Assembly: GCA_051313645.2 (NCBI GenBank)
Contig: JBNRSN020000027.1
Location: 25,628,460-25,670,000 of the forward strand
Length of the DNA stretch: 41,541 bases
Origin: Centroscyllium fabricii
Taxonomy: Eukaryota
Direction: 5' to 3'
The translations under genes and the position numbers were made by a program. Numbering within the stretch: the first letter of the stretch is position 1; every line of letters begins with the position of its first letter. Positions 2,429 to 24,162 of the stretch are shown piece after piece. Under the pieces are notes generated by a model. It was given only the letters and a program-made list of their open reading frames with translations, had not been told where the DNA came from and did not search any database.

Positions 2429-3312
2429 AACATTTCTTGTACTTAGGTGACATTTGTATCACCATCAGATCTAAATAAATACAAATTAATATATTTTCTA
2501 AAGCTGTGATTCGGGTAATAGTCTAACAGATAACGATTGACAATGTTTGGTAATGGTGTGTGAGGAATTCATAGAAAGCACAAAAAAGTTTCGCCTTTTC
2601 TCAGCACCTGGCGGGAAACGTTCAACACGGGCAACAACTGAGCGAGTTAGTAACTGAAAACAGGTTGCATTTTATTGGGGAAATGAAGCAAACCTGGATT
2701 GAAATAAAGTTTTCTGGAGAAAGAGAAATAACTGCCCTGGATCACTGAACGAGGAATTGACATAAAATGCTTCATTAGATCCACGCACGGCGTGTACCTG
2801 CAGAGCGAAGTTGTCCTATTGGAGTTTAAACACACAAGGCTGCAGCTGAATTGAACTTTAGATTCAACTCATATTTTTTTTTGTATTATTGCAACTTGTC
2901 TTAATGGCTGAGTAGGAGCATCGGCGGTACCTCTGACCCAAAGAGCTCAACGTCTAATGGAAAAGCAGAAGACTAAACTTTGTGTTACCCCAGGGGTTTG
3001 TCACCTTCGTGTTGACTGAGCAAAACCCCTTTACTTTTTGCTCGATTCAAGGCACAGGCAGAGAGAGTGGTCGCTCTCCCAGATCGTACATTAGAACGCA
3101 GAAAGGAGTCAGTGTGTTTAGCCAACCATCCCTGCGTTGTCCACCCTTCAGTCAAGCAGATTTTAGCTGCGTGTATCTCTGCGGCTGCTCTGTTATGCCC
3201 CGCGGGGAATATTCATAAGAATAAAGCGAGAAAGTTATTTTAACTGTAGATTATGGGGGGGGTGGGGGGGGGGGGGTTACCTATCAGCAATGCCCAGTCT
3301 AGCCATTTCATT

Positions 3313-3551
3313 ATAAGAACAGAAACTGCTGGAAAAACTCAGCAGACCAGACAGCATCGGTGGAGAGAAATATCGAGTCGACGTTTCGGGTTGGGACCCT
3401 TTATCAAAGGGGTTTTGAAAAAGGGTCCCAACCCGAAACGTCGACTCGATATTATTTCTCTCCACCGATGCTGCCCTGGCCTGCTGAGTTTTTCCAGCGT
3501 TTTCTGTTGTTATTTCGGATTTCCAGCATCCGCAGGATTTTGCTATCCTAC
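3313..3551. mobile_element. Penelope-like (family B2) 3'-end fold-back insertion
   Basis: Minus arm ~3318-3408 and plus arm ~3411-3546 are near-exact reverse complements. TSD CCATTTCATT at 3303-3312 and 3552-3561. An HHR-like motif lies on each side of the junction. Confidence 0.8.
3411..3446 (+). ncRNA. Minimal type I hammerhead ribozyme, U3:A8 core variant
   Basis: GGUU-UUGAAAA-A-GGGU CCCA ACCC-GAAA-CG-UC-GACU: stem I GGUU/GACU, 4-bp stem II, palindromic ACGU stem III. The GUC triplet predicts cleavage after 3442. Confidence 0.6.
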
Positions 3552-4468
3552 CCATTTCATTGCCCGTTAAATGTGAGGCACTCATTTCATTTCTATTTTT
3601 TTAATAAATATTGCTTGTGATGAATTATCGCTCAGACAGCAGAAATAGTTTTTTAAAGCCCATGAGCCACTTTCTGTGGATTCCGTTCTACTGATTTGGT
3701 GGCAGTTCAAGGAAAAAGGATAATACAAATCTCAAGGTGTTGCACTTAACACGCCTCAGAAATTCCCTTTTGTTGCAAAGTTGTGTTTAACATCTGCAAG
3801 AGAGCAGTGTTGCTTTTATCCCGACGATTGTGAAGTCCTTGCTTTCTACAGCACGGCCATGAAATTACACCTTTAAACACCCACAGCAATTGTTGGATTA
3901 ATACAATTTACAGAAATAACAGAAGCCAGTCCGCAGTAAGCCGTTTCTTTCTGAAATATTTAGGAGTGTGCATTTAAACATCCTATATAACTCATTCTAC
4001 ATGCTCTGAATAAACTTTGCAACTGTAATATTAAATAATAGGCAAGGCATGATGTTGCACTATAAAAGCATATTTTTTTTATTTAGGCTTCAATGTTGCC
4101 ACAGAATGTTCCTGTTGGAAGATCGCACCGGTCGACATCAATAAAGTGATTTGATTACATTGAATTTGTAGCCTTTGAAGTGTCTGTCTCTCCATCTTAG
4201 TAACACCTATAATGCAGCACATTACAATCTAATTGTGCCAGTATTCCATTTGGAAAGGACGCATTTTATGATGTTGACCAATGTGTATAGAAGGAAAAGG
4301 GCATTAGACCAACTCAAGTATCCCACGGTCATAGAAACTGCACATGGCCATATCCATATTAATTTCAGGATTGATTGGAATTGAACTATAATATTGGGAG
4401 AGGGGATTGGGGAGTAGGGGGACCCTTCCCCGCCACAAATATGTATATGTGATACTCACCTTCATCTA

Positions 4469-4588
4469 CAAGAAGTCACACAACACCAGGTTATAGTCCA
4501 ACAGTTTTATTTTAAACTATAACCTGGTGTTGCGTGACTTCTTGCATTTGTCCACCCCAGTCCAACACCGGCACCTCCACATCATGGC
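4469..4588. mobile_element. Penelope-like (family A) 3'-end inverted insertion
   Basis: Minus arm 4469-4515 joined to plus arm 4516-4588. Exact 12-bp TSD CACCTTCATCTA at 4457-4468 and 4589-4600. Confidence 0.8.
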
Positions 4589-4875
4589 CACCTTCATCTA
4601 GTTCGTTTTAACTAGGGGGTGGACACAATGAAACGGTCTTTTATTGACAAGGAGGGTGCTCTGGTTCCCTTATCCCCTGGCCTGTTCCATCGGATCGAAT
4701 GATTTATCTGATTAGCTGCAGGATTCACTTGTGAAGTTTGCTAATGCGAAATATACAGGGCGGGTACACTGAGTGACAGGGAGCCCTACCTTTGGGTACA
4801 TGCCTCAGCAACGTGCAAGTTCACATTAAATTTGTATTTTTTTTTGTTGTATCAGCTGCCGTGGAGATATCCAGT

Positions 4876-5205
4876 TGAGAGAGAGGCAGAGAGAAAGGGG
4901 GCGAGAGTCTATCATTCCCCCTTGAAACAGCATAATAAAGTAGGGTGTGTTTCAGTTCGGAGTGATGGTGGATAAGGGGGACGAGGGAGATGGGATTGGG
5001 GTGGAGGAGAGGGGATGGGATAGAAAGCGACCAGCTGATAGGGGGGAAAATAGAGACAAGGAGGAAAAGAGGATTAAAGAGGAAGAAAAAGAAGTGGAAT
5101 CTGGTGAGGGGGAAAAAAAGATAAAGGAAATAGATGAAATGTGAGGAGAAGAGAGGAAAAGACTGACAGCGAAAGATGAACGACGTAGGGGGCGAGGGTA
5201 GATCA
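4876..5205 (+). repeat. Purine-rich (G/A) low-complexity tract
   Basis: Strongly G/A-biased sequence; explains the spurious E/K/G-rich ORF 4947-5144. Confidence 0.7.
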
Positions 5206-5495
5206 GGAGAACTAACCTTCTCTGCCTTAATCAGTCCTCATTAATTTGTTTTGAGGATATCGTATTAGTCATGGAGCGTACTTAGAGTGTGTGAGCTGAT
5301 TAGCGTAGGGTAGTATTTAGAGTTTGTTTAGGGACGGGAGAGACTGTGTGATTGAGTGGAGAAAAGCTGATTACATCAAGGAATTCTATTTACCTATAAT
5401 TTTAGATCATCGGTAAAGCTTCAGTCTACTCGCTGAGCTGACCGTTCAAAGCATGTGATTCCACTTGCTGTTTTCTTTCAGTTCTCTCCGACTCT

Positions 5496-5951
5496 CAATT
5501 CAATTCAATTCAATTCAAATTTCTTTATTGGCATGACAAGATACATCTTATGTTGCCAAAGCACAGACAAAGGACATATACAATTGAACACACACACACA
5601 CACGCAGATCTAGACATACAGTGAGTGGACAAATATACCCATGTAAACACATATATGCACACATATAATCTTTTCTTAGATTCAATGGTCACTGGTTGCC
5701 CCTTTGCTTATGGCAAGCTGTAACGTAGTTTGCCGCTAATTTTATACAGTCCTTCTGTTCCCCCAATAGTTTTTGGTGGTCGTTCAAATTTTTGAATTCA
5801 GGGCAAGTTTTTTATGAATTTGGGGTAGAAATCCCCCCTTATGTCCTGATAGTTTTCACAGGTTGTGAGGAAATGCAGCTCTGTCTCCGCCGCTCCCTGA
5901 CTGCAGTGGGAGCACAGCCTTTCCTCTCTGGGCAGCCAGGTCTGTCTATAG
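5496..5951 (-). mobile_element. 5'-truncated RTE-X-like LINE 3' end
   Basis: Minus strand reads YRQTWLPREERLCSHCSQGAAETELHFLTTCENYQDIRGDFYPKFIK, then a frameshift, then TCPEFKNLNDHQKLLGEQKDCIKLAANYVTACHKQRGNQ* (stop at 5691-5689). This contains a C-terminal CxxC...H...C knuckle. It is followed by AATAAA and a (GAATT)n tail. Confidence 0.8.
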
Positions 5952-7500
5952 CCTGTCGTAACCTGTAATAGAATGCTCCTTGACAGGAGTTAAACTCTAT
6001 CGACCATCAGATTCATTTCCAGCTGAGAGACGAGAGATAATATATAATATTTTACATGCCTGGGGCTTTTTAAAATGAATGTACTAAACATGCATAAAAA
6101 GCAGTTCTCTCAGAAGCAACGGCAACAGAGATTCAAGTTGTGTGTATTGATCACTTTTTAATGTTAAGCTGCAACTTAGCGTTAGATTTGTGCCATTCTC
6201 GCTGATTATTGTTCTTTCTCTTGGTAGACGAGGCTTCTCACTCGTATTTTTTCTTCATGCAGATATCAAAGGTCTTCTGGTCAAGCTGATGGGAGGTCAT
6301 TCTAATAATACCCAAGGTCACTTCGGGGAGCCAGCGAGTCTCACAGTCATTTTTCACTTGCTTGCAGCATTAACTGACAGTTGCAGGGAACTGGATGTTG
6401 CCGGCCATGGACATCATGTGATGTCATCAGCACATGCCACAGGATTAGAGGACAAGCAGGAGCAGGGGTCTGTGGATTAAAAGGGAGCAACAATTTAAAA
6501 AAAAGACATATGATGGCAGCGAACGCATATCTTGCGGATCATATTCAGTGTGCGCAAAGCTGGAAGACAGGATGGTGTTTATTTTGATCTGAGCCCAAAC
6601 CTTCCCTTGGCGCTGCTCCAGAATATCTACCGTTTGGCCATTGGTGCCGCGGTGAAAAGTCAACACAGTTCAGTGACTGGATCTCGAGGGGAAAAAACAA
6701 ACGCCGAGAGTGTTGCCTGAACATTTATCTAATAAAGACTTGCTGCAGACATCCTGCAGAACATCCCTGGGACTCCCTATTCCTTCCTGCCCTGCCCAAC
6801 CCCCCCAAAAAAGACAATGGCAAGATTTCAGGCTCCATTGCCATCCTCGGTATTTGATTTACATTTCAACTGTAATTAAACAGTTGAAGAACAACAATGT
6901 CGACAAATTCCAGCTGAACTTTAAGTCTGCTTCTCCCCTGCCTTCGTGGCCCTTCATTAGATACTTTCCTCTTGGAGCAGGAGGTCAGGGAGTATAAATA
7001 TAAATTGCATTTTGCATTACTTCTAGATGAGTGAAGCTGTCAAACCAATAATACTAGCTTTCAGTCCCACTTTCTGCCACTTCTATCCCATTTTTCGGCC
7101 AGCAGGTCATGCACAAATTAAAAGTGACAGCCCAGCCGGCATGTCCAACAGACTTATATTGTTATAGGTTTCTGTCGTGGCACAGATCTCAGATCACAGC
7201 CTCAGCCTGTCTCTGTGTCCCCGGTGCCTGCTGGAGATACTGCCAGCCTTAAGGAAGCGCTGAAGAAAAGGAACGGAAAACGTGCTTGAACATGTGGCCA
7301 TTAATGGTGACGTGGACAGGGGGGTGGGGGGTGCGGGGGGAGACGTTTATTGACAAATTAAATGGATCTCGTTTGTTGGTTTGCATTTCTCAACTGCCCC
7401 ACATTCACATGCTGTTCGCTCGGTCACAACTGAACACTGTTTCTTCAAAGTGAACTTTCAACATTTTGACTGGAAAGATGAAATGGACGGCAAATATTTT

Positions 7501-7701
7501 GAGTTCTAACAACAGAAAATGCTGGAAAAAAAACTCAGCAGGCCAGGCAACATCCGTGGAGAGAAATATAGAGTCGACTTTTCGGGTTCGGGCCCTTTGT
7601 CAATATTTCTCTCCACCGATGCTGCCTGGCCTGCTAAGTTTTTTCCAGCATTTTCTGTTGTTATTTCGGATTTCCAGCATCTGCAGTATTTTGCTATCAT
7701 A
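7501..7701. mobile_element. Penelope-like (family B2) 3'-end inverted insertion
   Basis: Minus arm ~7508-7603 ends exactly at the first core base of the HHR motif (TTGACAA on minus). Plus arm ~7604-7697. TSD CAAATATTTT at 7491-7500 and 7702-7711. Confidence 0.8.
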
Positions 7702-9498
7702 CAAATATTTTCATTTACAAGTTGATCAATTTTATTGACCTGTGAAAGGACCTGCATGATATAACAATCAAATTGTATTGCAGCGAATTCTGCATTTTTT
7801 GATCTCTCATATTTTTCCTCGAATTGTTTTATTTCAGTGTGATTGCTCACAGATGAACGGTTGCTTAGTATTATGTATATGTGGGTTCTACTTTGCCAGT
7901 CTCCTTCACTTACTGGATCCGTTCACGCTGTCAATGTTGTCGCCGCACGCTTTGAACGACTGTAGAGAGACATCCCAGGACATTCATTGATGGGCAGATT
8001 TCCTTTCGCTCCAGACGTGTTGTTTTGCCAAAAGAAAAAAAAACTGGAAGAGTGTGGCAACACGAGTTGTGGGCGACCCTTTCCATAACCTCAAGGTCTG
8101 ATGCAACAAACAGCTGAAACAAAGTTTATCATCGAGTCTTACCTGAAATGGACGTGTCGGTGACATTTCTCTATTAAATTAATACCGACTTTCTGACTTA
8201 TTGAGGGATCTGTGCTCTTAAAACTCTAGCACAACTTTCATTGCATTCTTTAGCGGTCAAGTTTTTACAGAACAGAAACTTAAAACTTGTTAACAAATAT
8301 TCCCCCAAAATATTGAAGCGTTTATTTCAATGTTCGAAGTTATTTTTTTTGGCTGCGGAATTACAATCTCCAGCAGTCAGCTTGTAAAATGTACCCAAAG
8401 AAAATTAATCGATGAAATGTGCTTGTGGAAAAGGCTATCACAATGTAACAGTAAGCTGTTGCATAATACTGTCACTGTTTTTTAATCTGACAAGTTTGTA
8501 CAAGAGGTAGTTACTGCTAAATAAACCATGTGAAAATGTACATATTTTAATTGAATGAGAGGTGATTGCCCCTAAACTGTCAATCATCCTTTTGCCATTT
8601 TTGCATAAATTATATTGCAGCTTCAGTTATCTGTTCGGACCTACTAACCCTATAAGTGATGTTCTGCACTTTTCAGAGGACCGTGCTTAAGAGGCTTAAG
8701 AGGCGCGCATGTGAAGTGTGTTGCAGTGCGAACATTAATTGTTTTCGGACGAAAACCAGGGAGATATATATTTTGTTTTCCCCATTCTCGCTAATTGTCT
8801 CCATTCATGAAGGCATTGGCTTCTTCTGGGGGATGTGCTTCCATGAGCATCACGTTGCCCTCGTTACCTCAGTGGCCGCTATTCAAATGTGAGCCTTAAA
8901 GGTGACTGTTGGCTTGCTGCACAACCTCAGGGGCCATCGCACCAGATCGCCAACCCATCCCCCGGCGTCCAAACATGCGCACACTGTGCAGGGAACTGGA
9001 TTGCGATCAGCAATGGGAACCCTGGCCAATCTCCCCCTGCTTTATCCAGGCGCACTCAGACCAACTGTAGCACCCTCCTCACTACCATGGCGGAGAACCA
9101 ACGACTGCAGTACAGCAAAACAGCAGGAAACGCTGGAGAAACTCAGCAGGCCAGGCAGCATCGGTGGAGAGAGAAACAGAGTTTCAGGTCGATGACCTTT
9201 CTTCAGAACTGGAGAAGCCAGGAGCGGGGGGAGGGGGGGATAGATTTTAAAGCTTGTGGGGGCTGGGGAAAGGGGGAGGGGCTGAAAGAACAAAGGAAAG
9301 ATCAGCAACAGGCTAGAAGGCGGGGGAGATAAGAGATATTAGGAGACATTCGAGGAATACAGGACGGCTAACGGCTCTGGCAGAGTAAAGAAAAAAGCCC
9401 AGACGAAAGGGTGGGTTGAAAAAGAGAGAATATATATATATATAAAAAAGTGTGGTAGGGGCCGAGGTTATGATCTAAAATTGTTGAACTCTATGTTT

Positions 9499-9695
9499 CA
9501 AGTCATTAAATATATTCATATATTTAAGAAGGAGTTGGATATATTTCTTAGAGCTAAAGGTATCGAGGGATATGGGGAGAAGGCAGGGACAGGGTGCTGG
9601 GTTTGGATGATCAGCCATGAACTTATCAAATGGTGGAGCAGGATCGAACGGCCGAATGGCCGACTCCTGCTCCTATCTTCTATGTTTCTATGTTT
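9499..9695 (+). mobile_element. CR1/HER1-type LINE 3' fragment nested in the PLE
   Basis: Encodes IFKKELDIFLRAKGIEGYGEKAG; 3' end GGCCGAATGGCCGACTCCTGCTCCTATCTTCTATGTTTCTATGTTT. TCTATGTTT occurs at 9490-9498 and 9687-9695. The empty site is visible in the paralog at 11838-11846. Confidence 0.9.
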
Positions 9696-9849
9696 AGTCC
9701 AGAGGGCTGTAGAGTGCCTAAAATCTCTTATCTTGCCCCGCCTTCTAGCCTGTTGCTGATCTCGCCTTTGTTCTTTCAGCCCCCCCCCCCTTTCCCCAGC
9801 CCCTACAAGCTTTAAAATCTATCCCCCCCCACCCCCCCCTGGCTTCTCC

Positions 9850-9886
9850 AGTTCTGAAGAAAGGTCATTGACCTGAAACGTTAACT
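9850..9886 (+). ncRNA. Minimal type I hammerhead ribozyme (canonical core)
   Basis: AGUU-CUGAAGA-A-AGGUC AUU GACCU-GAAA-CG-UU-AACU: stem I AGUU/AACU, 5-bp stem II, palindromic ACGU stem III. The GUU triplet predicts cleavage after 9882. Confidence 0.75.
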
Positions 9887-10558
9887 CTGTTTCTCTCTCC
9901 ACCGATGCTGCCCTGGCCTGCTGAGTTTCTCCAGCGTTTCCTGTTGTTATTTCGGATTGCCAGCATCCGCAGTATTCTGCTAATGTGGTGCACCTTCCTG
10001 GTCCGTATATTTCAGGCATACCCTTCAACTGAGTGTGCCATTTACACCACGAGGACTGTGGTGGGTGGATACATGGGTCAATACATTTAGTAACCTCAGA
10101 AATAATGATATACAAGCTTAAAAGAGCACGAGTTATTTTCAAGGCTACTGGTTTACAACGACTGAACAAGTCAAATTCTGCTTTGAATACATGGGACTTC
10201 GAGATTTTTTATCAGTGACTTGGGGATTGCGTTACGCAATGCTACCATTTGTAATTGGGGACCGTGATTTACTCTGACTCAATAAATCAAATTGCACTTT
10301 TATAATATAGGATTCCTGTATTTATTCCCATGTTTTGAGGCAATCTCATTCCACGATTCTCTGCATTTTTCCAGTCTGCAGTGGTCTTAACTCATACAGT
10401 CTCCATATCACCTAGAGAATTCTTTTATAACAGCCACCAAAGTAGAGATGCATATTTATAAATTATGCAACGCCGGCTTTTGTGATTCAGATCTCTTTAA
10501 CAATTAAATTAGCTTGGTTTTTGATTAGCTTTGGTTCTGTTCTTTTCTGTTGTATTAG

Positions 10559-10688
10559 GAACATAGAAGATAGGAGCAGGAGTAGGCCATTCGGCCCTTC
10601 GAGCCTGCTCCGCCATTCAATGAGATCATGGATGATCATCCAAACCCATTACACTGTCCCTCTCCTCTCTCCATATCCCTCGATCCCT
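10559..10688 (-). mobile_element. CR1/HER1-type LINE 3' end joined to the HE1 SINE
   Basis: Reverse complement matches the last ~130 nt of the CR1 copies at 14027 and 15190 (AGGGATC.AGGGATATGG...GAATGGCCTACTCCTGCTCCTATCTTCTATGTT). Confidence 0.85.
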
Positions 10689-10956
10689 ATCGAGCCTGCA
10701 TCAACACATATCCCACCCTATCCCCGTAACCCCACATATTCAATCCCCCTAACACTAAGGGTCAATTTATCATGGCCAATCAACCTAACCCGCACATCTT
10801 TGGACTGTGGGAGGAAACCGGAGCACCCGGAGGAAACCCACGCAGACACGGGGAGAATGTGCAAACTCCACACAGATAGTACCCGAGGCTGGATTTGAAC
10901 CCGGGTCTCCAGTGCTGTGAGGCAACAGTGCTAACCACTATGCCACCGTGTTGCCC
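10689..10956 (-). mobile_element. HE1-type tRNA-derived V-SINE
   Basis: Pol III A box TGGCATAGTGG (10945-10935) and B box GGTTCAAATCC (10901-10891). Central V-domain TGTGTGGAGTTTGCACATTCTCCCCGTGTCTGCGTGGGTTTCCTCCGGGTGCTCCGGTTTCCTCCCACAGTCCAAAGA. Confidence 0.9.
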
Positions 10957-11388
10957 TTATTGGCGGCACGGTGGCATATTATTGGCACCTTGTTTATGAC
11001 ATCACTGGAACAACAGTCCTGGAGGAGATACTGAACTTTCAGAGTTAATCAACTCGGAGGAATATATATCTTCCTTCATTCATCATGGTGGAGAAAAGTC
11101 AACACGTGTAGAAAGCGGAAATGTGCTTAATACTGACATTAACATTAGAAAATACACCCCAAAGAGTTTAGGTCTCTAATTTCCAGAAGCAACCCTGGGC
11201 TATGAAGGTTTTGACACATTTGCGTTTCGCTCATTGAACCCGGAGCGAATGACTTCGGTTCTCTGCAGGTTTGATGGGCCACTTCTTACTGGCACCTCCA
11301 AAACCCAGATAGTGATTCATTACAAATCACAACAGGAAACGCTGGAGAAACGCAGCAGGCCAGGCAGCATCGGTGGAGAGAGAAACAG

Positions 11389-11425
11389 AGTTAACGTTTC
11401 AGGTCGATGACCTTTCTTCAGAACT
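11389..11425 (-). ncRNA. Minimal type I hammerhead ribozyme (canonical core)
   Basis: Minus strand AGUU-CUGAAGA-A-AGGUC AUC GACCU-GAAA-CG-UU-AACU; differs from 9850-9886 only in the stem II loop. Confidence 0.75.
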
Positions 11426-11465
11426 GGAGAAGCCAGGAGGGGGGATAGATTTTAAATCTCGTAGG

Positions 11466-11602
11466 AGCTGGGGAAAGGGGAGGGGCTGGGGAAAGGGGGA
11501 GGGGCTGAGGAAAGGGGGAGGAGCTGGGGAAAGGGGGAGGGGCTGTGGAAAGGGGGAGGAGCTGGGGAAAGGGAGAGGGGCTGTGGAAAGGGGAAGGGGC
11601 TG
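11466..11602 (+). repeat. G-rich ~19-bp minisatellite (about 7 units) inside the PLE
   Basis: Tandem units of RGCTGGGGAAAGGGGGAGG; the paralog has a single unit near 9261-9283. Confidence 0.85.
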
Positions 11603-12769
11603 AAAGAACAAAGGAAAGATCAGCGACAGGCTGGAAGGCGGGGAAGGTGAGAGACACAGGGATAAATTGAAGGAACACAGGATGGCTCTGGATGTGTGTG
11701 AACGGCTCTGGCAGAGTAAAGAAAAAAGAAAAAGAAGAAAAAAGCCCAGACGAAAGTGTGGGTTGAAAAAAGAGAGAAAATATATATATATAAAAAAGTG
11801 TGGTAGGGGCCGAGGTTATGATCTAAAATTGTTGAACTCTATGTTTAGTCCAGAGGGCTGTAGAGTGCTGTTATGGCCTCATAATGTTTGTGCGGTGACG
11901 CCAAGAGGTCCCGATGCATGCACACAAAACAGTTTGGCTAATTTTGTAACCATGTATCTCTAATATTACCTCAAAATTGGGCAAACAGTTAAGGAACGAT
12001 CTTGCACATTATTTCCCTCCCCTACCCTTTGGGGGCAAAGCGCAGAAAGCGGTTTTTACAATGCAATCTGGGATCTGCAGTTTAGGTCGGAAACTCTAAG
12101 ATGCCGGGGTTCTATAATTGAGTTTGGAGATTGATTCAATCTGCTACTTAGCCTGTTTTACGCACCGACTTTCGCAGTGTGTGAAGCGAGAACCGCCTTG
12201 CAGCAACACTACAGCTGGTATGTGAATATACCCTTACACACCCAGTGACCCGTGCTACTGTTGGGCTCAGTGACTCGCCCGCCAAATCTCATAAGCAATG
12301 TGCCTTTTAATAAAAATTGACAAAAAAAAGATGGAAAGCGCACGAAATTAAATCTTAATTACCATCATACAACCACTTTCCGATCAATGTGAGGCTCTTT
12401 TGGGCGTGCGTCGATATGATATCAGCGTTCTAACATGGGATTAAGCATTGATCTGACTCAAGTGTAGTAAAGTGAGATATATGTACCCACTTCTGGTGGG
12501 TAGTCTCACACTCTTTGGAGCTCACACAGGATGTGGTAAAACTCCAATCTAGTGTAAAGCTAGTTTTAAAACCTGGTCCATTTGCCCTCAATTGAATTTC
12601 TATCTCCAGTGTGGAATATGTTTATCTTTCCTTCCAAACACTTTAAGGACAAAAACCAAAAAAAACACAAAAAGATTGCAAGTTGAGAAAGAAAAACTGG
12701 CAAAAGTTTAAAACACTTCATGGCAAAGCATTAAAACATTTTGTTCTACAACAGAGACACAGTAATACA

Positions 12770-12925
12770 AAAGCAAAATACTGCTGATGCTGGCCATCTG
12801 AAATAAAAACAGAAAATGCTGGAGGTACTCAGCAGGCCAGGCAGCATCTGTGGAGAGAGAAACAGAGTTAACGTTTCTGAAACGTTAACTTTGTTTTTTT
12901 CGCCACAGAAACGGTCTGACTTAAC
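12770..12925. mobile_element. Older Penelope-like (family B) fold-back fragment
   Basis: Minus arm 12770-12877, palindrome centre AGTTAACGTTTC-T-GAAACGTTAACT at 12878, diverged right arm. No clear TSD. Confidence 0.7.
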
Positions 12926-12968
12926 AGAATAGAGCCTATTGGTGTTCATGCCACCATAGTAACGGTGT

Positions 12969-13345
12969 CCGATAGCAAAATACTGCAGGTGCTGACAATC
13001 CGAAATAACAACAGAAACTGCTGGAACAACTCAGCAGGCCAGGCAGCATCCGTGGAGAGAAATATAGAGTCGACGTTTTGGGTTGGGACCCTTTGTCAAA
13101 ACTAAAGCCAGGAAATGAAACAGGTAGGAAGGCCGGGGGAGCTGGGAGGGGACAAAGGGGAAGAGGAAATAAAAGAGAAGAGAGAACAAAAGAGGAAAGA
13201 CATTAAGAGGTATTGAAAATGAGACGAGAGGCTGATGGGGCTGTGGACAGGAGACAGCGAGAGATTGGGTGTGAAAAGCACTGGCAGAATGGGAGGCGGC
13301 TGCCACCAGAGAAAAAAGCCTTTGCAGCATTTTCTGTTGTTATTT
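12969..13345 (-). mobile_element. Penelope-like (family B2) 3' end with a short inverted terminal copy
   Basis: Minus-strand body with HHR-like motif at 13068-13103 (AGUU-UUGACAA...; GAAA mutated to AAAA at a CpG). Short plus-strand copy 13325-13345. 13-bp TSD ATAGTAA(C/T)GGTGT at 12956-12968 and 13346-13358. Confidence 0.8.
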
Positions 13346-13869
13346 ATAGTAATGGTGTGTATTGTCAATGTGGCGCATTGATGGATAAGTTGTGTATATT
13401 TAACATACTTAAGATCTGAGGTGGACTGGGGGCAACACAGTTAGATAGATATACACAGGGTCTATTGCGTGCCTCAATACATGGGGCTATTGATACACAG
13501 GGCTTATCCCGCCTTTGATACACAGGGGATACCCTGCCGCCTCCGAGGGAATATAGCAGCTCTGGGCCACGCTGTCCCATTAAAAAATAATTACTCAACA
13601 TGCACACGATCTCTCTGCTGGTTGAAGAGAGTGTGGTGTGCTGCAATGCAAGTTTAATTTAGTTCTGCCGCTGAACACCGCACTGTACAGGTACTGGCTA
13701 AAGCAGGTTTCTGTAGCAGAATGGCAGCCATCATTCGTTGAATGTGGAAAAAGTTGCGCTAGCGAGCTTTATTATTTTATTTGAACCAGTAACTTGCGAA
13801 ATGTTGTTACTAGGTTTCATACGGCCCAATAAAAAGTTAGCTCAAATAAAACTAAGAAAGTAAAAATAA

Positions 13870-14650
13870 ATAACTTGTGTTCATAGTCTTGGTATGTCCC
13901 AAAGTGCTTCATCGTCAATGAATTGCAAGTGTAAGCTCTGTTGTTAAGGAGAGACATGCCACAGCCAATCAGTGCTCAGCAATGTCCCAGAAACAACAAA
14001 TAAGGCAAATGACCAGTTATCACAATGAAACCTATAAAATTGTCAGGCCTGGACAGACGAGATGCAGGAAGGATGTTCCCGATGGCCGGGGAGTCCAGAA
14101 CCAGGGGGCACAGTCTAAGGATAAGGGGTAAGCCATTTAGGACTGAGATGAGGAGGAATTTCTCCACCCAGAGAGTGGTGAACCTGTGGAATTCTCTACC
14201 ACAAAAGGCAGTTGAGGCCAATTCATTAAATATATTCAAGAAGGAGTTAGATATATTTCTTAAGGCTAAAGGGATCAAGGGATATGGGGAGAAGGCAGGG
14301 ACAGGGTACTGAATTTGGATGATCAGCCATGATCTCATTAAATGGCCGTGCAGGCTCGAGGAGCCGAATGGCCGACTCCTGCTCCTATCTTCTATGTTTC
14401 TCTGTTTTGGTTGAGGGCTGAATGTTGGTCAGGTGACCAGGAAAACTCTGCTCTTCTTGAAATAGTGAATGGGATATTTTACATCCACCCGAATAGGCAG
14501 ACAGGGCCTCAGATTAATGTCTAATTTGAAAGACTGCTCCTCCCACAAAATTGCGTGGGATTATCAGCCTAAATTACCTGCACAAGTCCGAGAATAGGGC
14601 CTGAACCCATAATTCAGACTCAGAGGCAAGAATGATACCACTGAGTCAAA
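13870..14650 (-). mobile_element. Old Deu-domain SINE (SacSINE1/AmnSINE-like), interrupted by CR1
   Basis: AATGACCAGTTATC | TGTTTTGGTTGAGGG...CTGCTCTTCTTGAAATAGTGAATGGGATATTTTACATCCACC...GACTCAGAGGCAAGAATGATACCACTGAG resembles the reverse-complemented Deu-SINE consensus as recalled, and continues across the CR1 insert. Confidence 0.7.
14027..14401 (+). mobile_element. CR1/HER1-type LINE 3' fragment
   Basis: ORF2 C-terminus RTRGHSLRIRGKPFRTEMRRNFSTQRVVNLWNSLPQKAVEA, 3' UTR and TTCTATGT tail. Confidence 0.93.
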
Positions 14651-15189
14651 TTTCATGGGATAAAGAGTGTAAAGCAACCATCTAAATGTGCTTTATTGCT
14701 AACCCAATAATAATCTAAAAACACTTCAGATATGCTTAACTAAAGCTCATAACTGACATTTTGTCATCGATTGTTACTTCTTCCGATCTATTTAACTAAA
14801 CATGTTTGTGTCCGTTCAAGAACTTATCAGCTCCACACTACATTTCCAACTAGATAAGTGATTTCCCTCATACTTCTCTATCATATTCAGTAAACACAAA
14901 ATGCATCCTTGAATATGAATTTGTCTCTTCGAAAACTTATAAAGGTGTCGTGAGATTTTCAGCATAAATAAATAGTAAATACCACGTTTGTATCCAGAAT
15001 ATAATTGTCACCTCATCAGCTTAGGGTGCAGTTGCACTGTCATTTTTGCATCGCACCCAAACGCTTTGATGGTGCGGTATAAGTTAAGTGTGAGGTCTGT
15101 GGTCTGACTCCCTGGCACACTAATACTGGGGGGTTTCAGAGCAACAACTCAGGCTGCTTGGATGTTGCACTGGATGCAGTATAACTTCT

Positions 15190-15573
15190 TTGAGAGGGGA
15201 TCTCATCGAAACCTATAACATTCTGTCAGGACTGGATAGACTAGAAGCAGGAAGGATGTTCCCGATGGTGGGGGAGTCCAGAACCAGGGGTCACAGTCTA
15301 AGGGTAAGGGGTAAGCCATTTAGGACTGAGATGAGGAGGAATGTCTTCACCCAGGGAGTGGTGAACTTGTGGGATTCTCTGCCACAGAGGGCATTAAATA
15401 TGTTCAAGAAAGAGTTGGCTATATTCCTTGAGGCTAAAGGGATCAAGGGATATGGGGAGAGAGCAGCGACAGGGTACTGAATTTGGATGATCAGCCATGA
15501 TCTCATTGAATGGCGGAGCAGACTCGAGGGGCTGAATGGCCTACTCCTGCTCCTATCTTCTATGTTTCTATGT
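15190..15573 (+). mobile_element. CR1/HER1-type LINE 3' fragment
   Basis: LRGDLIETYNIL...TRGHSL...VVNLWDSLP, a classic CR1 ORF2 end. Small internal deletion relative to the 14027 copy. (TTCTATGT)2 tail. Confidence 0.93.
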
Positions 15574-19000: not shown

Positions 19001-19181
19001 TATTTCAGGGTAATTCAACAGCGCTGATCTGAAACACAGACACATGAACAAATAACAGGGTGGATTTCAGAAAAAGGCGCCATGTCTCGATTGGCGAACA
19101 TTTAAATTAATATTTAACTCTTGCCATCCATGAGAGGGTATATGCTGCTGGAATACACCGTGAAATAGGATGCACCCTACA

Positions 19182-19284
19182 CCAGTCTCTCTTTCACCTG
19201 ACGAAGGAGCAGCGCTCCGAAAGCTTGTGATTTAAAATAAAACTGTTGGACTATAACCTGGTGTTGTGTGACTTCTTGCAATTG
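19182..19284 (+). mobile_element. Penelope-like (family A) 3' fragment with complete HHR
   Basis: 19214-19280 matches the right arm of the 2251 element. Possible 7-bp TSD CCCTACA at 19175-19181 and 19285-19291. Confidence 0.8.
19194..19230 (+). ncRNA. Minimal type I hammerhead ribozyme (canonical core)
   Basis: UCAC-CUGACGA-A-GGAGC AGC GCUCC-GAAA-GC-UU-GUGA: stem I UCAC/GUGA, 5-bp stem II, palindromic AGCU stem III. The CUU triplet predicts cleavage after 19226. Confidence 0.78.
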
Positions 19285-19904
19285 CCCTACAAAAAAAACA
19301 CCTTTGCAAGTATTCCTTTGAACATGCTAGCCGTGTGGACAATGCAATAGAAAATGAGAAGGGCTAGAGTACTGTAAAAAACACACAGTGTGCCAGTCTG
19401 AGAGTAGAGAGCCCTTTCTATTTGAGGTGAATTCAAGTGAACCCTAATATCACCGAGGTTGCATTAGGTAAATACGCCCCGTTTGCTTCAGACTCGCAGC
19501 TTTGGTTGGCTATGATTTTTTATACAAAAACAAGACAGACAGACTGATTTGTGTTTCCCCATCCTCTGATCACGCTGTTTATTCTTTGAACTCCAAAGCA
19601 GCATGTTTTTGCGCGTGAAGTTTAGTTGAAATATACAGTGGAGCTGATAAGAATGATTTGTTGTAGCAAGGCTTGAGTGAAGACTATCCTGCACTGTCAA
19701 ACACGTGCAGGGAAAATGCGTTTCTCTCTGAATGTGTAGCTGATTAATAGCGAACCGCTAAAGGCAGCCAGCCGTGAGACTATTAGAAAAAAATTAAACA
19801 GCTTGTGGTAGAGGTTCGCCACAGACAACACAACTAGGATACTGGGCAATAATTTAATGGTGATGTCAGCTACAAAAACTGGTCATCAATCAGCGCAGGG
19901 TTTT

Positions 19905-23924: not shown

Positions 23925-24008
23925 TTATGTTAGAATTACTACGATAGTTTTATTGTGCAATACGGAGCAATCCTGTATGATATGAATTACAAGAACTAGT
24001 TTTCTTAA

Positions 24009-24162
24009 TGATGTGGAGGTGCCGGTGTTGGACTGGGGTGGACAAATGCAATAAGTCACACAACAACAGGTTATAGTCCAACAGTTTTATTTCAAATAAC
24101 AAGCTTGTGATTTCAAATAAAACGGTTGGACTATAACCTGGAGTTGTGTGACTTCTTACATA
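24009..24162. mobile_element. Penelope-like (family A) fold-back insertion
   Basis: Imperfect palindrome centred on AAGCTT (24101-24106), which is HHR stem III and the cleavage site. 11-bp TSD AGTTTTCTTAA at 23998-24008 and 24163-24173. Confidence 0.8.

Follow-up and report, generated by a model that had tools for sequence, protein, structure and literature searches.

Covariation of C3 and G8 to U3 and A8 has been described in several natural hammerhead ribozymes, and the variants were reported to be active in vitro (Perreault et al., 2011; PMC3088659); both the 3-8 pair and the active U3:A8 variants on which the original prediction for this locus drew are thus in print, in the portion of that source available. 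A U3-A8 descriptor has also been applied to the hammerheads of Penelope-like elements (PLEs), with about 1,300 matches in Schistosoma, and the alignment of 56 rows in the same work, as far as its accessible text goes, has C3:G8 in 13 of 13 chordate rows and contains no cartilaginous fish (Cervera and de la Pena, 2014; PMC4209133). For a PLE of Anolis, single mutants at position 3 or 8 abolish cleavage and the double mutant partly rescues it, and dead ribozymes did not lower insertion in vitro (among PMC8557442, PMC3846280, and PMC11167929, in the parts accessible). Published min-HHRs cleave poorly, even as dimers.

The closest described counterparts of the U3:A8 family considered here, B2, are the U3-A8 motifs of the Cercyon PLE of Schistosoma mansoni. 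As described in the text to hand, these share with B2 the UUGANAA core, an extra nucleotide after A9, a short helix I and a two-pair palindromic helix III without a loop, and likewise occur mainly as single truncated copies and opposite-strand pairs in a genome that also carries C3:G8 families; B2 differs in its vertebrate-type genome, its 4-bp helix II, and its unrelated flanks (PMC4209133). From the natural hammerheads of Perreault et al. it differs in being minimal and without a stable helix III, and the available part of that paper draws no link to PLEs (PMC3088659). Like the endonuclease-containing PLEs, B2 shows a 5'-truncated copy with an inverted neighbor, a tail of 30-40 bp on one side and a hammerhead in the terminal repeat, while its TSDs of 12-14 bp with one mismatch are unlike the approximately 8-10 bp given for those elements in the consulted portions of PMC8557442, PMC3846280, and PMC11167929. 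Its copies are, unlike those elements, too short for any RT or endonuclease frame.

The window analyzed here is a stretch of 41,541 nucleotides from Centroscyllium fabricii (contig JBNRSN020000027.1). Four B2 cores, UUGAUAA at 3407-3401 (minus strand), UUGAAAA at 3415-3421 (plus) and UUGACAA at 7603-7597 and 13099-13093 (both minus), lie where the original prediction had placed them, as do two CUGAAGA cores of the family B1 at 9854 (plus) and 11421 (minus); a third B1 core at 9206 (minus) and a further family, B3, with the core CUGACGA at 19198 (plus), had been overlooked. Among the window copies, U3:A8 is found in 4/4 B2 cores and C3:G8 in 3/3 B1 cores. The four B2 cores derive from three insertions only, and their treatment as four covariation events was rejected in favor of a single lineage event at positions 3 and 8. 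A relaxed pattern of core plus helix II matches eight motifs in the window, compared with 0.005 on average and at most 1 in 200 dinucleotide shuffles, an excess that reflects recurrence rather than function because the pattern was derived from these very copies; an initial loose scan had given 14 matches, with 6.1 expected by chance, and had overlooked two decayed copies. Rfam returned no match across the window at the gathering threshold and, at E up to 10 over 3000-14000, 15 matches from zero hammerhead families, B1 being missed too; these matches were set aside as hairpin artifacts of the fold-backs.

All three B2 insertions are inverted, carry a one-sided tail of 33 nt and are flanked by TSDs. 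Insertion 1 consists of an inverted short arm without a tail (3313..3408, minus), in which the 5' strand of helix I was lost at the junction beside the core at 3407-3401, and of a long arm with the tail (3412..3547, plus); its left TSD (3299..3312, plus) has 14 bp with one mismatch to the right copy at 3548-3561. The long arm holds the sole complete U3:A8 motif among the four B2 cores, with an unpaired A at 3422, helix II at 3423-3434, GAAA at 3435-3438, the palindrome ACGU at 3438-3441, C17 at 3442, a predicted cut at 3442/3443 and a helix I of at most 5 bp including wobbles; even here, a hairpin is predicted to trap the motif. In insertion 2, the core of the inverted short arm (7507..7603, minus) starts at the junction, the 5' strand of helix I is gone, helix II has 3 bp and the helix III palindrome is broken; the tailed long arm (7604..7698, plus) begins downstream of the ribozyme; the TSD (7491-7502 and 7702-7713) has 12 bp with one mismatch. 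Insertion 3 comprises a tailed long arm (12971..13320, minus) whose core at 13099-13093 is followed by a private G12A change at 13079, with a helix I of 4 bp and a pyrimidine-rich upstream part of about 220 nt, and an inverted short arm of 25 nt (13321..13345, plus); the upstream limit of the long arm follows from the TSD (12956-12968 and 13346-13358; 13 bp, one mismatch). The B2 copies in the window are most likely inert.

The B1 copies have the same fold-back arrangement. A short arm at 9119..9717 (minus; limits set by repeat matches) is split by another repeat at approximately 9499-9693 and has its core at 9206-9200 and a 6-nt deletion spanning helix III, and the tailed long arm at 9718..9982 (plus) holds a complete C3:G8 motif with its core at 9854-9860, a helix I of 4 bp, a helix II of 5 bp and U17. 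A second short arm (11324..11868, minus) carries another complete C3:G8 motif, with its core at 11421-11415. A search for TSDs around the insertions at 9119-9982 and 11324-11868 found none. The B1 fold-back at 12772..12909 (long arm 12772-12877, minus; short arm 12878-12909, plus) is without a core because its junction at 12877/12878 falls just before GAAA. The B3 minimal hammerhead (19175..19291, plus) has its C3:G8 core at 19198-19204, the palindrome AGCU, a helix I of 4 bp and a helix II of 5 bp, and related fold-backs lie at 2250-2427, 4469-4584, and 24008-24161.

As far as sequence can define them, the B1 and B2 motifs are minimal type I hammerheads. Against the metazoan min-HHR consensus, B2 agrees in the extra nucleotide after A9, the G10.1:C11.1 pair, the palindromic positions 15.1-16.1 and the short helix I. 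With regard to the core, in which a Watson-Crick 3:8 pair, GAAA and a UH site are expected, U3:A8 is present in all four B2 cores, G12 in three of the four, and the site ends in C17. The unpaired nucleotide separating position 9 from 10.1, and also G10.1:C11.1, occur in 4/4 B2 copies, where B1 has A10.1:U11.1 in place of the latter pair, and the loop-less palindromic helix III reads ACGU in 3/4. Helix I is 4-5 bp long in the two B2 copies that retain its 5' strand and amounts to four Watson-Crick pairs in the family majority. For the segment 3409-3450, the lowest-energy fold is predicted to consist of helices I and II (-9.4 kcal/mol); a hammerhead-type dimer is predicted at -17.1 and the lowest-energy dimer at -26.3, in a model that leaves tertiary contacts out. 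The segment 3411-3446 proposed earlier for cleavage assays is less suitable: it comes from the inversion junction, carries the minority letters U2.1 and A7, and is not predicted to adopt the ribozyme fold that 3409-3450 adopts. Nor does a tandem-dimer construct reflect the genomic copies, which are head-to-head.

Family-wide frequencies were taken from 5,490 and 6,574 contig pieces of two runs of one study (X1 and X3) that contain this locus; the resulting shares apply per position, not to joint haplotypes, and are skewed towards the reference. Letters other than U at position 3 and other than A at position 8 each make up less than 2% of depth in both runs, and U3:A8 is fixed in the B2 family rather than a product of private decay. 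Such low variation indicates fixation in the source and not selection, because most non-CpG places are equally low. N7 varies, with C7 in the majority and U7 at 13-15% of depth, as does one position of loop II (34-35% and 24-25%), while A7 of the copy at 3415 is below 2% and therefore a private change; G12 (86%) and C2.1 (90%) are the majority letters. The statement that positions 3 and 8 change together while N7 varies accordingly survives in that U3 and A8 are fixed and C7 and U7 are both family-wide, and falls short in that the change is one inherited lineage difference and A7 is private. Fixation of C3:G8 in B1 is a matter of three window copies. The B2 core also appears, though only at low depth, in runs from two further organisms, which hints at wider spread.

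The case for selection comes from the comparison of B1 with B2. At three pairs (3:8, 10.1:11.1, and 2.1:1.1, the third with the family-majority letter at 2.1) both partners differ between the families, and the catalytic bases are all the same. Six substitutions that form three complete pairs out of nine have a probability of about 0.005 when the family majority is used; restricted to the copies in the window, the test for compensation has little strength (p about 0.06), two-sided changes are confined to 3:8 and 10.1:11.1, and 55/56 cells are paired, a statistic inflated by related rows. Because three pairs were compensated without loss of any catalytic base, the source element was probably under selection, and the suggestion that it was selected for catalysis gains two further two-sided pair changes. 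A companion expectation, that U3:G8 or C3:A8 would be rarer than the double change, must be qualified by an acorn-worm PLE in which U3 with G8 stands as the family representative.

These data can be read without function. The B2 ribozyme might be dispensable, with U3 and A8 a chance fixation in a single master copy and overlapping constraints, such as a promoter, a splice site, or the start of a reading frame, mimicking conservation. Only one lineage event separates the families, and G8A is a CpG-type change wherever N7 is C, the family majority. The Anolis ribozyme mutants leave insertion in vitro unaffected, and Naiad PLEs have spread without canonical hammerheads, according to the accessible parts of PMC8557442, PMC3846280, and PMC11167929, of which one is the source. 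Single changes at 3 or 8 also occur in 7/129 motifs from metagenome contigs, but these look like decay, and their close relatives, where seen, are C3:G8. Chance fixation must also contend with three two-sided pair changes, with none of the nine shared pairs mismatched in the family majority and the catalytic bases intact, and with the canonical G10.1:C11.1 pair and GUC site of B2; it is improbable. CpG decay as the entire cause of U3:A8 was rejected, as C3 lies outside any CpG. Even less credible, to the point of being nearly negligible, is a self-standing non-LTR retrozyme, in which B2 would be a short tandem unit making circular RNA through ribozyme cleavage. B2 copies do lack coding sequence, and animal retrozymes, one of them from a cartilaginous fish, are non-coding with type I hammerheads and an origin in PLE terminal repeats (bioRxiv 10.64898/2026.07.22.740005, as far as accessible); that source, however, sets a minimum of two complete-motif units in succession, whereas B2 has no tandem units in the window; each of its three insertions is arranged head-to-head, ends variably on the 5' side, and bears TSDs and a tail on one side only. 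Head-to-tail units of the retrozyme type with complete hammerheads were absent from the window.

A third reading concerns descent. The original prediction called B1 the sister lineage of B2, a status that is no more than putative: the ribozymes are identical at 27/40 positions, the 3' arms at 50/57 and the tails at 28/32 (copy 13099 against copy 9854), and the upstream parts cannot be aligned. This drop in identity, the end of the alignment, which lies upstream of the core by about 15 nt, and the runs of the two other organisms, where the 3' arm is deep and most contigs leave B2 at helix II and turn B1-like, would suit a module exchange: a different PLE lineage, itself already of the U3:A8 type, would have supplied the ribozyme and upstream part, and recombination or a template switch would have attached them to a B1-like 3' arm. 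Such a ribozyme might still work, and B1 and B2 would then not be sister ribozymes. B1 and B2 nevertheless agree in the bases that immediately precede helix I, in three of the four pairs of each of helices I and II, and in the palindrome, an agreement that exceeds the sharing between unrelated min-HHR families (compare B3), and a protein-binding 3' arm would be expected to evolve more slowly in any case. Such an exchange is somewhat more plausible than chance fixation but still unlikely.

The preferred reading, which is probable on sequence grounds, is that B2 represents truncated head-to-head leftovers of a PLE, with the U:A 3-8 pair family-wide and cleavage predicted to have been retained in the source element. 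The stumps are likely to be PLE-derived because head-to-head arms, one-sided tail and TSDs match the PLE layout. In both B1 and B2, a pyrimidine tract followed by AG terminates within helix I's 5' strand, where a terminal-repeat intron of the D. virilis kind might end, and insertion ends among the contig pieces concentrate at 13103. At the upstream end of the B1 arm at 11324..11868, about 16 codons and a stop at 11816-11866 look similar to PLE proteins at their C-terminus and may be a remnant of one; Pfam gave no match for the 20 aa of this frame and, on 3 and then 26 of 52 long reading frames, no RT or endonuclease and one sub-threshold HTH match. The window contains no tRNA genes. By analogy with other PLEs, the source element's transcripts would span tandem terminal repeats, and helix III would be completed either by two motifs pairing via the ACGU palindrome or with the help of an element protein; the completed hammerhead would cut slowly after GUC. 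RT and a GIY-YIG endonuclease might then copy the RNA from two starts 33 nt apart, giving one tailed and one tail-less arm. The core itself may, at a guess, have passed from C3:G8 through a U3-G8 wobble to U3:A8, the final step being eased by CpG where N7 is C.

Beyond the locus, metagenome contigs (9 of 64 parts covered) and one viral locus yielded 129 motifs at 124 loci, of which 119 were C:G, four C:A, three U:G and three U:A at positions 3 and 8; only one of the three U:A motifs has a helix I, so the scanned parts hold no second U3:A8 family. Viral contigs gave one match without helix I, taken as chance, and prokaryote genomes five, against approximately 7.6 expected by chance.

U3:A8 in B2 is a real variant, yet the identical variant in the identical element class was published in 2014, and the known picture is unchanged. 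The warning that CUGANGA searches would miss it holds for a strict descriptor only, since a U3-A8 descriptor has been in use since that year (PMC4209133, in its accessible text). No vertebrate U3:A8 PLE hammerhead was found in the literature that was accessible. Tentatively, and rather doubtfully, B2 may be proposed as the first vertebrate PLE family, of very high copy number, to use a U3:A8 hammerhead, three compensated swaps away from a co-resident C3:G8 family, with a helix I that overlaps a splice acceptor where many insertion ends lie. Strict CUGANGA ribozyme counts in cartilaginous fishes would leave out a large family. The role of PLE hammerheads is at issue because they are poor cutters in vitro and, in one reconstituted system, were not needed for insertion; B2, with three pairs swapped, including the tertiary 3:8 pair, and the catalytic bases all kept, offers comparative evidence for selection on the fold. 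If the proposal is true, B1 and B2 would be a natural experiment indicating that in vivo cleavage by PLE ribozymes is under selection and that their folding is timed by splicing.

Hammerhead-type cores recur in the window in three repeat families, of which B2 carries a U3:A8 pair and B1 and B3 carry C3:G8. Every core position in the original prediction was verified in the sequence: B2 reads UUGAUAA at 3407–3401 (minus strand), UUGAAAA at 3415–3421 (plus) and UUGACAA at 7603–7597 and 13099–13093 (both minus), and B1 reads CUGAAGA at 9854 (plus) and 11421 (minus). A third B1 core at 9206 (minus) and a B3 core at 19198 (plus) had been overlooked, and C3:G8 is found in all three B1 copies of the window. 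A relaxed core pattern matches eight motifs against a mean of 0.005 in 200 shuffles, an excess that signifies recurrence of the motif and nothing beyond, the pattern having been derived from these same copies. Rfam returned no hammerhead match in the window for either B2 or B1. Each copy runs through a short helix I strand, the seven-base core, an unpaired A, helix II and GAAA; a four-base palindrome then stands where helix III would be, and the motif closes with the cleavage base followed by the second helix I strand. Judged from sequence, B2 and B1 have the layout of minimal type I hammerheads from metazoan Penelope-like elements (PLEs), for which the consensus shows one additional nucleotide following position 9, G10.1 paired with C11.1, and a palindrome spanning 15.2–16.2 (PMC4209133).

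Three insertions account for the four B2 cores. Each is composed of two arms placed head to head, with approximately 33 nt extra on one arm only, and is flanked by a target-site duplication (TSD) of 12–14 bp with one mismatch. In this they resemble endonuclease-containing PLEs, for which an inverted truncated copy, a one-sided tail of 30–40 bp and a TSD are described (PMC8557442; PMC3846280), the tail of an Anolis PLE reflecting the spacing of two reverse-transcription start sites (PMC11167929). No reverse transcriptase or endonuclease frame is left in the B2 copies of the window. Upstream of the B1 terminal repeat, one B1 copy has about 16 codons and a stop (11816–11866, minus) that we take to resemble the C-terminus of a PLE endonuclease protein; 20 residues of this frame gave no Pfam match. 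One B1 copy also contains a GA-rich 19-bp tandem expansion of seven units (11460–11600), absent from the other long B1 copy. B3, which combines C3:G8 with an AGCU palindrome and shares the fold-back layout, is represented at 19175–19291, 2250–2427 (exact 11-bp TSD), 4469–4584 and 24008–24161, the 19198 copy being bounded by a 7-bp direct repeat. The fold-back junctions at 12877/12878, 2354–2358 and 24103/24104 fall within, or next to, the GAAA-palindrome segment of the ribozyme. A further repeat family (9512–9693, 10556–10688, 14041–14405 and 15224–15573), one copy of which breaks a B1 arm at 9499–9693, has frames at 14013–14312 and 15124–15480 that resemble CR1/L2-type LINEs at their 3′ end; Pfam gave no match for these frames.

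The B2 family was surveyed by aligning four public sequencing runs to 13040–13160 at an 85% threshold. Two of these, X1 and X3, both from one study, contain roughly 0.7 of the locus's sequence words and yielded 5,490 and 6,574 aligned contig pieces. At U3 (13099) and A8 (13094), alternative letters all fall below 2% of depth in both runs, shares that are taken per position and not jointly, from depth sums that are not copy numbers, under a threshold biased toward the reference. The U3:A8 reading is thus real and a family-wide trait of B2; as most non-CpG places also show less than 2%, this indicates fixation in the source and not, by itself, selection. Sizeable variants within the motif are limited to N7, loop II, where one position is three-way (two other letters at 34–35% and 24–25%), and wobble-compatible position 2.1. 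The variation proposed for N7 holds as a mixture of C (the majority) and U (12.6% and 14.6%), with U also in the partner arm of the 3415 insertion; the A7 of the 3415 copy itself is below 2% and hence private. G12 accounts for 86% of family depth, so the G12A of the 13099 copy is likewise private. Position 2.1 is C in 90% of depth, pairing with G1.1; both B2 copies that keep this position (3414 and 13100) have U there, reflecting either a minor sub-lineage or coincidence. In X12, a run from another organism, low-depth contigs crossing the B2 core have a UUCG-type loop II (13084–13087) with positions 3 and 8 unchanged, and a single loose end is suggestive of a U3:A8 core joined to a B1-like upstream arm.

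Between B1 and B2, both sides have changed at 3:8 and 10.1:11.1, and also at 2.1:1.1 when the family majority is used. With that majority, the six substitutions form three complete pairs out of nine (p ~0.005), as against p ~0.06 when only the window copies are counted. Of the cells in this comparison, 55/56 are paired, versus 14–54% with partners slid. U4, G5, A6, A9, G12, A13, A14 and the palindrome are identical in the two families, H17 is U in B1 and C in B2, and B2 lacks the fifth helix II pair seen in B1. The three two-sided pair changes favour the predicted selection on the source element, as selection on its fold, with fair evidence from one comparison of two lineages. That positions 3 and 8 change together is correct in that both differ between B1 and B2, but this amounts to a single event that every copy has inherited. 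Describing the families as sisters is not proven: identity is 50/57 in the 3′ arm but only 27/40 in the ribozyme, and the upstream parts cannot be aligned, so that a module swap may possibly lie behind the B1/B2 difference.

The U3:A8 variant and its PLE setting are already published. "U3-A8 instead of C3-G8" is known from Schistosoma PLE hammerheads (Cervera and de la Peña, 2014; PMC4209133), where a dedicated descriptor gave ~1,300 matches and opposite-strand pairs were noted; the variant would be missed, as predicted, by a standard CUGANGA search, but is not hidden from specialists. Natural U3-A8 covariation was described by Perreault et al. (2011; PMC3088659), citing prior proof of activity in vitro, which supports the view that such variants can retain activity. 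The 56-row alignment of PMC4209133, tallied as text, holds 53 C3:G8 rows, two U3:A8 rows, both from S. mansoni and one of them PLE-linked, a single row combining U3 and G8 (a PLE-linked Saccoglossus motif) and none combining C3 and A8; its chordate rows, which include no cartilaginous fishes, are all C3:G8 (13/13), in contrast to B2. No vertebrate or shark U3:A8 case was found in a literature search with incomplete coverage of PLE hammerhead variants, and one may be in print. U3:A8 is also rare among 129 motifs from metagenome contigs (9 of 64 parts, plus one viral locus), which comprised 119 C:G, four C:A, three U:G and three U:A, only one of the last with helix I; single changes at 3 or 8 were each at 2–3%, the level expected from decay. 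Many of these loci (L002–L124) are C3:G8 minimal hammerheads of several families, with head-to-head pairs at L041, L048, L090, L110 and L122, and are probably PLEs of host animals. Prokaryote genomes gave five matches versus 7.6 expected.

Only one of the four B2 copies (3415) has a complete motif. The 3407 and 7603 copies lack the helix I 5′ strand at the inversion junction, and the palindrome of the latter is also broken. For 3409–3450 the predicted lowest-energy structure contains helices I and II (−9.4 kcal/mol), whereas this is not so for 3411–3446, the construct originally proposed for cleavage assays. The insertion at 3300–3550 is predicted to form a single hairpin over its full length (−166.5 kcal/mol), in which the complete 3415 copy would be locked. 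Insertion ends cluster at 13103, which has the largest group of loose ends (30 records in X1, 33 in X3), their flanks long and dissimilar. Helix I has its outer edge here, and in both B1 (9850–9851, plus; 11425–11424, minus) and B2 a pyrimidine tract terminates in AG at this point, resembling a splice acceptor; in D. virilis a PLE intron ends at helix I (PMC4209133). The cluster could reflect splicing or a preferred reverse-transcription stop.

Minimal motifs are reported as uncut in monomers and weakly cut in dimers (PMC4209133). The Anolis motif requires protein, loses activity with single changes at 3 or 8, is partly restored by the double change and is dispensable for insertion in vitro (PMC11167929). 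By extension from these studies and PMC3088659, the source PLE would most likely be transcribed through tandem terminal repeats, such that two motifs would complete helix III via the ACGU palindrome, or with the protein of the element, and would then cleave, slowly, after GUC. As a guess, C3:G8 may have passed through a U3-G8 wobble followed by G8A at a CpG; both the C7 majority and the acorn-worm (Saccoglossus) example fit such a path. The genomic B2 stumps are probably inert; in the source element, U3:A8 would keep the geometry of the 3-8 pair, and there is fair evidence that its fold was kept under selection.
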